A stretch of 64,000 nucleotides of DNA from a phage. Of this stretch, positions 26,147-28,323 are shown piece by piece. The DNA is taken from NCBI GenBank assembly GCA_023802575.1, contig GCA_023802575.1_3947.1. One strand, 5' to 3'. A program made the position numbers and the translations under genes. Numbering within the stretch: position 1 is the first letter of the stretch; the number at the start of each line of letters is the position of its first letter. A model generated the notes under the pieces. It was given only the letters and a program-made list of their open reading frames with translations. It had not been told where the DNA came from and ran no database searches.

Positions 26147-26243
26147 GTGAGAAGAGGTCTGGAGTTGTGCCGCTAACTCAACTCCGTGGAATTTGTTACG
26201 GTCTTCAGTTGACTCAAAGCGGTCTTTCACTTGACCTCTGAAT

Positions 26244-26319
26244 TGGTGCTCCCACAAGGATTCGAACCCTGATAAGTTGCTTACAAGGCAACCGTAATAG
26301 CCAATTATACGATAGGAGC
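26244..26319 (-). tRNA. tRNA-Thr (TGT)
   Basis: Anticodon stem GTTGC/GCAAC, loop CTTGTAA; T-loop TTCGAAT. Confidence 0.7.
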
Positions 26320-26326
26320 ATTAATT

Positions 26327-26401
26327 TGGAGCATCCAGAGGGAATCGAACCCTCAACCTCAGTTTGGAAGACTGTAATTTTCCCGTTTAAACTATGGATG
26401 C
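26327..26401 (-). tRNA. tRNA-Gly (TCC)
   Basis: Anticodon loop CTTCCAA; T-stem GAGGG/CCCTC, loop TTCGATT. Confidence 0.65.
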
Positions 26402-26407
26402 ACTAAT

Positions 26408-26483
26408 TGGTGGAGTCACTGAGAATTGAACTCAGTTCCCAAGTTTGCAAAACTCGAATTTTAACCATATAAACTATGACCCC
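26408..26483 (-). tRNA. tRNA-Ala (TGC)
   Basis: Anticodon stem CGAGT/ACTTG, loop TTTGCAA; T-stem CTGAG/CTCAG. Confidence 0.65.
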
Positions 26484-26489
26484 ATTGTT

Positions 26490-26565
26490 TGGTACAGGTG
26501 GAGGGAATTGAACCCATCGTCTTACTGATTAAGAGTCAGCCGCATAACCATTTTGCTACACCTGC
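26490..26565 (-). tRNA. tRNA-Lys (CTT)
   Basis: Anticodon stem GCTGA/TCAGT, loop CTCTTAA; body closely similar to the TTT isoacceptor at 27789. Confidence 0.55.
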
Positions 26566-26572
26566 ATTAATT

Positions 26573-26650
26573 TGGTAGGAGACAAGGGATTCGAACCCTC
26601 AAACACCAACTTCTAAGGATGGTAGGTTTACCAATTACCGTCAATCTCCC
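26573..26650 (-). tRNA. tRNA, anticodon tentatively TAG
   Basis: T-arm GAGGG TTCGAAT CCCTT and acceptor clear; anticodon arm fold ambiguous, candidate loop CTTAGAA. Confidence 0.4.
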
Positions 26651-26904
26651 ATTAAATCTTTTTAGAGAACTTCTAAGAACCTAAGCAACAAGGTTCCACA
26701 ACAAGCGACTAATAACCTTAGAAGCCCTCTAAAAAGACCTAAATAGGTCTTTGCATAGTCTTGTTTAATCCGGTGACTAGAACCTTTGGAGAGCTTGATA
26801 TTATCTCTTCTCCGTGACACCTACTAGGTGCTTTGACAGTGTACGACAATACACGAGGGATAAACCGACAATGCGAACAAGCATGGACGGAGTAAATCTT
26901 ATTA

Positions 26905-26994
26905 GGCGGTAAGTAAAGGAGTCGAACCCTCACCGTATCTCTACAGTGGCAACAGTTTTCAAGACTGTTTGGCTGCCATTAGCCGCTACCTACC
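26905..26994 (-). tRNA. tRNA-Ser (TGA), class II
   Basis: Perfect anticodon stem ACAGT/ACTGT with loop CTTGAAA; long variable arm; terminal CC encoded without A. Confidence 0.6.
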
Positions 26995-27007
26995 CCTAAT
27001 AAGATTT

Positions 27008-27090
27008 TGGCATGGGACGGAGGAGTTGAACCCCTTTGAAACGGTTTTGGAGGCCGTTGCTCATGCCTTAGAGTCTTAACATCGTCCCAT
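27008..27090 (-). tRNA. tRNA-Trp (CCA), atypical length
   Basis: Perfect 7-bp acceptor ATGGGAC/GTCCCAT, anticodon loop CTCCAAA; about 83 nt with enlarged D region. Confidence 0.5.
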
Positions 27091-27233
27091 ATTATAATTC
27101 GAAGCTTACCCTGTTATCTCAACACTGTCAAGCTTCTTCTCAGATTATTTACATGTTCTGGAAAACATGAGATACAGACCACCTCCCTACAGGAAGACCC
27201 ACTAAGGCCGTCTAAGTAATCTGCTAACTATTT

Positions 27234-27310
27234 GGTACACCCTACAGGATTCGAACCTGTAACTAACGATTTAGAAGACCGTTGCTCTATCCAATTGAAC
27301 TAAGGGTGCA
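27234..27310 (-). tRNA. tRNA-Arg (TCT)
   Basis: Anticodon stem ACGGT/ATCGT, loop CTTCTAA; D-arm GTTC AATTGGATA GAGC. Confidence 0.7.
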
Positions 27311-27555
27311 TTATCTTTAAAGACTCTCTTAGAAAGCCCTTAAAGATGCCCACCTTATTAATCATACCGTGGGCGAGTACGCCAAATTCTTTGATGAGGG
27401 ATTGGAAGACCTCACTGGTGTTTAGCCTATCAAGCTACTGCCAGAAAAACATTGTCGTTTGCATTTATTTTAAATTTGCAAAATAGACGCTACGCAACGA
27501 AAACTAAGGTTACTATAAAGTAGTCACATCTCAATGTCAACAACTTTATTGAAAT

Positions 27556-27631
27556 TGGTACTGGTAGGTGGAATCGAACCACCGATGTTCCCTTATCAGG
27601 GGAGTGTTATAACCTTCTTAACTATACCAGC
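27556..27631 (-). tRNA. tRNA-Ile (GAT)
   Basis: Anticodon loop CTGATAA; T-loop TTCGATT; CCA encoded. Confidence 0.65.
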
Positions 27632-27633
27632 AT

Positions 27634-27710
27634 TGGAGGTTCAGGTGAGAATCGAACTCACATTCATAGGGCTTATGAAACCCTTGCATTACCTTATCTG
27701 CGACTGAACC
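27634..27710 (-). tRNA. tRNA-Met (CAT)
   Basis: Perfect acceptor GGTTCAG/CTGAACC; anticodon loop TTCATAA. Confidence 0.65.
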
Positions 27711-27788
27711 AGAATAAGTACCCTAGTTAGAGAAACTGTTGAGTGGGTGTTTCCAGCCGCGCAGGTGTTTCTCAGTTAAGGGTGAATT

Positions 27789-27864
27789 TGGTAGAAGTGG
27801 AGGGATTCGAACCCATCGCCTGTCAGATTAAAAGTCTGCCGCATCACCATTCTGCTACACTTCC
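27789..27864 (-). tRNA. tRNA-Lys (TTT)
   Basis: Perfect anticodon stem GCAGA/TCTGA (reverse complements), loop CTTTTAA; T-loop TTCGAAT. Confidence 0.7.
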
Positions 27865-28323
27865 ATTAAATTATCTTTGTAGATAAGCTACCCAGACTTG
27901 CTTAAGGTCTGTAGCGATGTGCCTTTTTGGGTTTAAATCTAGAATTTACCCATCCACCCTTTGTGGTCGCATACTCACAGGTAAGCTTAATAACTTATCT
28001 ACAAAGATAATTACCAGACCGTTGTTTATCATCTTAAGTGCTACCATTACACCAACTCGACATCTGCCGAGTGAAGGAATCGAACCTTCGCCTTTTCTTT
28101 ACCGGAGAAATAGATTGTTTAAGTTTTTGCTGTAAACGGTCTTCTGTAAATTTGTTGAGCCAGACCAAGTTTTAAATTTTTTCAAAATTAAATTGGCTTG
28201 AAAATATCATACATATTTGCTGAATTTGGTCTTCTGCTCCTTTAAAGAATACTCGTAAGAACTCTTTAAGGGAGGGGCTAAATAGCCCTCTCAAAACATC
28301 ATTTTGAAATACTTATTATAATT

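Follow-up and report, generated by a model that had tools for sequence, protein, structure and literature searches.

Candidate Y RNA-like modules in the tRNA gene array of a Felix O1-type phage, beside a gene whose product is predicted to fold like Ro60

Much work has gone into the particles that Ro60 forms with Y RNA in animals and a few bacteria, and to our knowledge almost nothing is known of the roles they play in phages. Here we describe a candidate phage counterpart, contained in a 64,000-nucleotide stretch of phage DNA (GenBank assembly GCA_023802575.1, contig GCA_023802575.1_3947.1; the whole stretch is hereafter termed the window). It comprises four paralogous structured modules, denoted Y1 to Y4, that occupy spacers within a large array of tRNA genes, and a gene at positions 29152-30567 whose product is predicted to fold like Ro60. 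The analysis followed up a sequence-only reading of the window, in which several spacers and recurring motifs of this array had been proposed as processing signals or small RNAs.

The closest described systems come from bacteria and phages. Bacterial YrlA RNAs combine a Ro-binding stem with V, T, AS and D arms, and are encoded near the Ro60 gene on the same strand (PMC4201824). In the systems described so far, Y RNAs need Ro60 to be stable. The 2014 survey of Y RNAs (Chen et al. 2014; PMC4201824) began from genomes annotated with TROVE, and for that reason would miss the DUF2828/DUF7788 family discussed below. Thermus phage phiLo encodes a Ro60 protein together with two RNAs, Yrl1 and Yrl2, and the protein is reported to bind both these RNAs and host PNPase (PMC12135203). 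In phage Bas63, a Felixounavirus, gp130 is structurally Ro60-like and is encoded directly upstream of tRNA genes; its role against the host defence ppl derives from a 2024 knockout screen described in the PhageMaP preprint, in which the knockout was ppl-sensitive (PMC11482910). The authors of that study identify no RNA, and only guess that some of the annotated tRNA genes are Y RNAs (PMC11482910); our search of the literature found no paper that identifies such RNAs. A different kind of precedent is phage T5 (NC_005859; L122 among our loci, 28-42 kb), for which 25 tRNA genes and eight "stable RNAs with unknown functions" are annotated in 30 kb, including RNAI, RNAIII, RNA1 and RNA2, some of them described as tRNA-like.

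The window represents a Felix O1-type myophage (Felixounavirus-type): phage KhF3 is 97% identical to the flagged stretch, and 335 phage records matched, mostly from Felixounavirus. By ARAGORN, the interval 23975-28986 holds 26 tRNA genes, every one of them on the minus strand; Rfam models at gathering score confirm 24 of the 26 and find nothing else in the window. Because the array lies on the minus strand, the features noted earlier are sensible only as minus-strand RNA, and it is on this strand that every one of them was recovered at or near the place proposed for it. Unless stated otherwise, features described below are on the minus strand.

The sequence-only reading had listed, as separate items, trailer motifs recurring between tRNA genes and an orphan T arm resembling a tRNA 3' half. 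The motifs proved real, and the separation did not hold: both items belong to a single family of four modules. The sequence CAGAAGACC occurs in four exact copies in the 64 kb, on the minus strand only (5' bases at 28817, 28650, 28236 and 28146), each followed exactly 14 nt later by CAGCAA and then by a closing GGTCTGG, and all lying within 0.7 kb; a repeat search retrieved the same four copies, at 31 nt each. When both strands of the window were scanned with a structural descriptor (C-ANA-AG and an inner stem of 4 bp, whose matching strand is followed by CUGG and a 3-bp outer stem), it matched exactly the Y1-Y4 sites, compared with 0.08 matches per shuffled window. In minus-strand folds, each module is closed by an outer stem of 4-5 bp that is specific to the copy yet always paired (UGAC/GUCA, UUGC/GCAA, GAGC/GCUC, UUAC/GUAA), joined through an asymmetric internal loop (5' AGA, 3' G) to a 7-bp inner stem (AGACCRN/NYGGUCU); CAGCAA follows 4-5 nt after the 5' strand of the inner stem and precedes a variable loop. 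Three of the modules are short: Y1 (28742-28820), between tRNA-Glu and tRNA-Met, reads UGAC-AGA-AGACCAA...CAGCAA...UUGGUCU-G-GUCA; Y2 (28588-28653), between tRNA-Met and tRNA-Asn, reads UUGC-AGA-AGACCGU...CAGCAA...ACGGUCU-G-GCAA; and Y3 (28157-28239) reads GAGC-AGA-AGACCAA...CAGCAA...UUGGUCU-G-GCUC. The four lie 0.3-1.1 kb downstream of the 29152-30567 gene, on its strand, and nearly fill their spacers, with 3-8 nt left on either side to the flanking tRNAs.

The fourth module, Y4 (28011-28149), is of YrlA type, with the same closing stems and CAGCAA enclosing a circularly permuted tRNA-like domain in its loop. This domain comprises, in order, a V (anticodon-like) arm, UUUCU-CCGGUAA-AGAAA; a T arm, GAAGG-UUCGAUU-CCUUC, with T loop UUCGAUU; a 7-bp acceptor-like hairpin, ACUCGGC-AGAU-GUCGAGU, followed by U-G where a tRNA has its nucleotides 8 and 9; and a D arm, GUGU-AAUGGUA-GCAC, with D loop AAUGGUA. 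The T arm of the earlier reading, GAAGGTTCGATTCCTTC, is therefore genuine (it gives a partial match to the Rfam tRNA model at 22 bits) but not an orphan, being part of this permuted domain. As an ordinary tRNA Y4 was rejected: ARAGORN reports none, the RF00005 match (22 bits, with a gathering score of 29) covers only the V/anticodon-like and T arms, and the order of the arms is permuted. The modules were likewise rejected as terminators, as they have no U-tract and are not among the terminator-like sites. Other Rfam matches in the window, the array, Y4 and 11 related loci consisted of tRNAs and chance matches (plastid untranslated regions, microRNAs, and weak tmRNA matches over tRNA-Ile).

Among 27 Felix-like loci fetched through the Ro60-like protein, the four modules occupy orthologous places, except in L004, where three were recovered in full; Y1 is present in 27/27. 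Module cores are conserved and loops vary by indels, including one of 1 nt inside Y4. Between orthologues the Y2 outer stem exchanges UUUAC/GUAA for UUUGC/GCAA, and the acceptor-like hairpin of Y4 appears as ACUCG/CGAGU, ACACG/CGUGU or ACCCUUC/GAAGGGU. Two more distant loci, L036 and L037, whose proteins are ~53-55% identical, carry four to five modules each, with inner stems that all differ yet remain complementary (AGUAUC/GAUACU, AGACUA/UAGUCU, AGACUC/GAGUCU, AGUGUC/GACACU, AGGCUG/CAGCCU) and with C-ANA-AG, CU-G-G and CAGCAA retained.

Alignment of 12 Y4 orthologues (alignment A3) placed 97.4% of cells in pairs and showed compensatory change in 14 of 32 pairs; none of 500 shuffles reached as high, and slid controls were 40-51% paired. 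The 45 best matches to a covariance model built from this alignment (R1, below) were 94% paired (slid controls, ~40%), with compensatory change in 31 of 32 pairs, although pairing counts from this set are inflated, and represent an upper bound, since the alignment was fitted to the model structure. Its covariation score was 0.51 vs 0.12; helices 1 and 2 were paired at 88.6% and 98.3%, with compensatory change in 11 of 11 pairs. The first two pairs of the inner stem, A-U and G-C, are nearly invariant. All four tRNA-like arms of Y4 covary, the D stem being invariant in the 12 sequences and covarying only in the set of 45. The comparison of folds across related phages, suggested as a check on the small-RNA proposal, thus yielded the compensatory changes it called for, and lends that proposal strong covariation support where the trailer motifs and the T arm are concerned.

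These patterns bear on the proposition that the modules are selfish or neutral repeats (inverted repeats resembling miniature inverted-repeat transposable elements or repetitive extragenic palindromes) or decayed and rearranged tRNA pseudogenes that built up in an array prone to recombination. Degenerate tRNA-like genes do occur in the array, and in some genomes homing-endonuclease insertions are present in the same spacers, as with an HNH-like open reading frame (ORF) in L039. Against this stand the orthologous positions of the modules in all Felix-like loci, the preservation of pairs by compensatory substitution and not by sequence identity, and a strand that is always that of the gene. We strongly disfavour this origin and consider it very improbable.

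R1, built solely from Felix-like, L036 and L037 sequences, was calibrated in shortened form, so that its E-values are rough: it scores Y4 at 147 bits, Y2 at 48.1 bits (E 1.5e-10), Y1 at 37.8 bits (E 5e-8) and, with filters off, Y3 at 33.5 bits (E 6e-7), and the next full-length match in the array (25 bits) overlaps a tRNA. We interrogated 82 sources with R1, including 75 contigs in which the protein is only 38-47% identical. Full-length matches with E < 1e-3 were found beside DUF2828 homologues (38-62% identity) in >20 loci, often 15-500 nt from the DUF2828 gene. The matches having E no higher than 1 numbered 90, and all fell on the strand of the gene, many of these being partial and to same-strand tRNA genes. 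Several of the matches, inspected by eye, are clearly of YrlA type, their T, acceptor-like and D arms being canonical; those in L052, L073, L117 and L120 are examples. In several distant contigs the RNA stands beside the gene outside any run of tRNAs, within ~13 nt in L058 and L050, ~55 nt upstream in L060 and L114, and ~20 nt downstream in L086. The tRNA region of T5 (30 kb) gave no full-length R1 match above 14.4 bits, and none of the T5 stable RNAs matches R1. A relaxed descriptor (stem plus CAGCAA) was noisy, at 13.7 matches per shuffled window, and was used for position and strand enrichment only before being replaced by R1; matches that differ from the motif at one position (CAGAAGAAC) in the distant loci L029-L032 fall within coding sequence and were dismissed as chance. 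In L038, a ~143-kb T4-like contig, the Ro60-like gene is followed at once by a run of five Y-type modules (9524-10117).

The same distribution informs a second alternative, in which the modules would be only cis-acting processing or spacing signals of the tRNA precursor, guiding RNase E, RNase III or RNase P or insulating the folding of tRNAs, with no existence of their own and no link to the Ro60-like protein. Such a role would accord with their location exactly between tRNAs, in spacers that they fill, with the long perfect hairpins resembling RNase III substrates in other spacers, and with the ordinary thermodynamic stability of Y1, Y3 and Y4. A spacer, however, has no need of a bulge and CAGCAA kept invariant across phages whose proteins are 38-62% identical, nor of a complete T/acceptor/D tRNA mimic; moreover, the RNA adjoins the gene outside tRNA runs in L058, L050, L060, L114 and L086, and the tRNA array of T5 lacks the modules. 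We regard this explanation as rather unlikely.

The Ro60-like gene (29152-30567) encodes 471 aa directly upstream of the array; its product carries Pfam domains DUF2828 and DUF7788 and falls in PHROG 850, "RNA-binding protein". An AlphaFold2 model computed with 35 homologues (predicted local distance difference test score 87.6; predicted template-modelling score 0.88) displays the arrangement that marks the Ro60 family, namely a HEAT-like helical-repeat ring followed by a vWA domain with a MIDAS (metal ion-dependent adhesion site), and the MIDAS residues D279, S281, S283, T349 and D381 are invariant in the family. In a Foldseek search of the PDB, the 12 best matches to the model were all Ro60/TROVE proteins, aligned along practically the whole length (E 5e-9 to 2e-6) and including phiLo phage Ro60, Xenopus Ro and Deinococcus Rsr; after them came only isolated vWA domains. 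The protein is accordingly predicted, from this model, to fold like Ro60. A database search returned 2344 clusters of homologous proteins at E 1e-5 or lower. Directly upstream, 30649-31020 encodes a basic DUF5681 protein of 123 aa. The order DUF5681, DUF2828, tRNA array recurs in L035, L036, L037 and L039, and the T4-like and KVP40-like contigs L038 and L040 yielded no DUF5681.

This neighbourhood admits a further possibility: that Y1-Y4 are small RNAs with some other partner (for instance a host protein such as Hfq, ProQ, PNPase or a tRNA-modifying enzyme, or the DUF5681 protein), or tRNA-mimicking decoys for host anticodon nucleases, and that the Ro60-like gene is a mere syntenic neighbour. 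The tRNA-like module could be recognised by tRNA enzymes, as YrlA has been shown to be (PMC4201824), there is no canonical Ro-binding motif, and the DUF5681 gene is syntenic in the Felix-like group as well as in L035-L037 and L039. Yet the RNAs are present in L038 and L040 without DUF5681, and across phages of ~75 kb to 250 kb it is the DUF2828 gene that is the common neighbour, always on the same strand. A junction that stays invariant beside a freely varying helix furthermore classically marks a dedicated RNA-binding protein, which is exactly what Ro60 is. A partner other than the Ro60-like protein seems to us improbable.

We favour, with a probability of roughly two in three (0.66), the interpretation that Y1-Y4 are four paralogous noncoding RNAs forming a phage Ro60-Y RNA particle with the 29152-30567 protein; they would then probably be the RNA partners of a phage protein reported to counter bacterial defence. 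The interpretation draws on the RNA structures and their covariation, on the predicted Ro60 fold, and on linkage of RNA and gene across distant phages; the expression of Y1-Y4, their binding by the protein and every downstream function we infer.

Several observations weigh against it. Fold z-scores of Y1, Y3 and Y4 are unremarkable (-1.0 to -1.6). The Rfam YrlA model (RF02553) matched no module at E up to 10, including a search with a 161-nt Y4 sequence, and at gathering threshold neither the window nor any of 11 related loci gave a match. The 5' strands of the modules lack the canonical Ro-binding motif (GNCGAAN0-1G, or CGAA); they are purine-rich and read (N)NNC-AGA-AGACC here and C-AAA/AUA/ACA-AG in L036/L037. 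Within the flanks fetched, a module is detectable in only about one quarter to one third of distant DUF2828 loci, and the pairing counts of the larger alignment carry the inflation already mentioned. The Pfam domains of the protein are not TROVE, phmmer and profile searches against PDB sequences gave no Ro60 match and nothing relevant, and its assignment to Ro60 is by predicted fold only, with template-modelling scores of 0.50-0.64. Finally, Bas63 gp130 is probably the orthologue of the 29152-30567 protein, a correspondence derived from genus and synteny. Because the Ro-binding motif is absent, RF02553 gives no match and the partner is Ro60-like by fold only, we read Y1-Y4 as a Y-RNA variant outside the curated YrlA family, Y-RNA-like in design; the earlier suggestion of an Rfam search with Y RNA and tRNA-like models was in this sense the right lead, even though the YrlA model itself detects no module.

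A mechanism can be outlined on this basis. Y1-Y4 would be transcribed together with the tRNAs from promoters at ~29.0-29.1 kb, and, because the modules nearly fill their spacers, ordinary 5' and 3' maturation of the flanking tRNAs would free them. Each RNA closes on itself, its two ends paired into the bulged helix, in which the junction C-ANA-AG...CU-G-G is invariant and the rest covaries, and this helix, with the single-stranded CAGCAA, would constitute a putative binding site for the Ro60-like protein. Rsr-Y RNA-PNPase complexes are known from bacteria, and Salmonella possesses an rsr-yrlBA-rtcBA RNA-repair operon; by analogy with the former and with phiLo Ro60, the particle may gate or tether host RNA-decay or RNA-repair enzymes, and it may well be the active form of the gp130 activity against ppl in Bas63.

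Y1-Y4 supply concrete RNA candidates for the Ro60-like gene: their coordinates are exact, and both a covariance model and a defined recognition motif accompany them. The analysis also suggests a Ro60-Y RNA system far more widespread among tRNA-rich phages than surveys based on TROVE had indicated. A broader proposal, to which we give about even odds, is that DUF2828/DUF7788 proteins form a large unrecognised phage clade of Ro60, typical of tRNA-array phages and with its own co-evolving Y RNAs (a bulged helix and CAGCAA, often a permuted tRNA mimic, often several copies), and that the particle, not the protein alone, neutralises host defence (ppl in Bas63) or protects or polices the phage tRNA pool through host RNA-decay or RNA-repair enzymes.

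Apart from the four modules, the array contains other structured elements. Element (c) (27865-28013) borders Y4 at one end and stops 4 nt short of tRNA-Lys at the other; it is a conserved structured RNA in its own right. It had been described as two copies of a 17-bp palindrome; the arms are indeed partly palindromic, but the element is better understood as one inverted repeat with 22-nt arms (27869-27890 and 27991-28012; 95% complementary, 100 nt between) forming a ~24-bp stem, with z = -6.5. Multiple alignment with MAFFT and RNAalifold across lineages failed on this long and diverged stem, and folds of individual sequences were used instead: each lineage has its own closing stem of ~20 bp or longer, different in sequence and the same in architecture. 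Inside the element, the stem of the hairpin CAGAC-CUUAAGCAA-GUCUG (27893-27911) covaries and its 9-nt loop, C(U/C)U(A/U)(A/U)GCAA, is conserved, so that a small-RNA reading of element (c) has reasonable support. Extended by one residue (CAGAC-CUUAAGCAA-GUCUGG), this hairpin resembles a miniature Y junction, and the L036 orthologue is closed by a Y-type stem with CAGCAU; element (c) may belong to the same system as Y1-Y4.

Between tRNA-Thr and tRNA-Val, element (a) (26147-26243) is a conserved structured spacer of 97 nt in which the pairing proposed for 26153-26239 is confirmed: a 7-bp closing stem (AGAGGTC, 26153-26159; GACCTCT, 26233-26239) encloses a 7-bp hairpin (GGAGTTG, 26161-26167; CAACTCC, 26179-26185), with z = -2.96 for the element. 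The element shows almost no variation among the 25 Felix-like loci in which BLAST detects it, one hairpin pair changing among G-C, G-U and A-U, and contains CUGAAGACCGU, a degenerate copy resembling the 5' half of a Y module. Element (a) was not found in L035, and the Thr-Val spacer of L036 is only 35 nt long. Neither element (a) nor element (c) is recognised by R1, and neither is counted as a Y module.

Two longer spacers had been said to lack tRNA signatures, and neither b1 (26651-26904) nor b2 (27310-27555) contains a tRNA by ARAGORN or Rfam; part of b2, however, is simply a promoter. Spacer b1 holds several local hairpins, among them a long one with 26-nt arms (26652-26677 and 26717-26742) just upstream of tRNA-Leu, and among 27 variants compared with alifold, 7 of 56 predicted pairs show compensatory changes. 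In b2, an internal array promoter (TTGACA-17-TATAGT, 27512-27540, on the array strand), matching 11 of 12 consensus positions and the best sigma-70-like site of the region, precedes a structured leader of ~195 nt that ends in a hairpin (27313-27347) before tRNA-Arg; b2 is 97-100% identical in most loci, L035 included, with compensatory changes in 10 of 56 predicted pairs. The b2 promoter is one of three copies of the promoter repeat family D20 recovered in the repeat search, to which two tandem sigma-70-like promoters (29105-29133 and 29013-29042), located by promoter scan between the Ro60-like gene and the first tRNA, also belong. Long near-perfect hairpins just upstream of tRNAs could plausibly serve as RNase III or processing sites. 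A second hairpin family, with a core like AAAGRGUUCUUACGAGAGUCUUU, occurs at 25058-25090, 26652-26742, 27313-27347 and 28246-28283, directly upstream of tRNA-His, tRNA-Leu(UAG), tRNA-Arg(UCU) and Y3, and L035 has one too; its members are candidate processing sites of RNase III type.

The spacer between b1 and b2 (26995-27232) contains a degenerate tRNA-Trp-like gene (27014-27088) missed by ARAGORN, with anticodon loop CUCCAAA (CCA), T loop UUCAACU, a 7-bp acceptor stem and 3' GCCA; its D arm, however, is aberrant, C31 and A39 are mismatched, and its Rfam score is only 23 bits, obtained with the tRNA-Sec model. No other gene for tRNA-Trp is present in the array. BLAST finds the gene kept in L035, L036 and L037, and a similar one is seen by eye in L039. 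The 78-nt spacer between tRNA-Lys(UUU) and tRNA-Met (27711-27788) forms a stable hairpin (z = -4.3) and has 96% identity in L035, against only 62% for the Ro60-like protein of that locus; at the equivalent position after tRNA-Lys(UUU), L036 and L037 hold a Y-type module with a T arm. In two of the other loci, an IS605 OrfB/Cas12f-like TnpB gene lies inside the tRNA region of L038 (13393-14652, plus strand), and a group I intron (Rfam RF00028, 99 bits) in the region of the split large-terminase gene of L039 (15324-15581, plus strand).

Small ORFs within the spacers have no Pfam match, and the spacers were rejected as small-protein genes: the ORFs are of 46-72 aa, and what separates the Y4 orthologues is a 1-nt indel together with compensatory substitutions. 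On the plus strand, ORFs at 27917-28135 (over Y4 and element (c)) and 27346-27486 (over spacer b2) match ORFs called "hypothetical protein" in some GenBank entries, such as orf047 and orf048 of AYO145A. The indels and compensatory substitutions argue that these two are not genes, and "hypothetical proteins" annotated across such spacers, as at 27917-28135, probably overlie RNA genes and not protein genes.

The locus can be set beside the known systems. T5 resembles it in having small stable RNAs among phage tRNA genes, a precedent for elements (a) and (c) and for the b spacers, and differs in having no detectable R1-type module and no Ro60-like gene annotated in the 30 kb inspected. With YrlA it shares an adjacent Ro60-type gene on the same strand, a bulged stem, conserved on its 5' strand, that the two ends of the RNA form, and, in Y4, a tRNA-like module in the order V, T, acceptor-like, D, while Y1-Y3 recall YrlB-like RNAs, the shorter additional Y RNAs that lack the tRNA-like module. 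It departs from YrlA in its junction, which is C-ANA-AG/CU-G-G with CAGCAA and not GNCGAAN0-1G, in the lack of any RF02553 match to the modules, in its four copies inside a 26-gene tRNA array, and in a proposed DUF2828/DUF7788 partner in place of TROVE. Phage phiLo likewise encodes a Ro60 ring protein with two adjacent Y-like RNAs, and its structures 9KOP and 9L5Y are among the best fold matches to the 29152-30567 model; its RNAs, however, carry CGAA and are located upstream of the gene, a tRNA array is lacking, and its protein is only ~15-16% identical in structural alignment. With Bas63 the difference is that the candidates described here reside in spacers and not among the annotated tRNAs; gp130 is encoded in a phage of the same genus, at the same position as the gene at 29152-30567.

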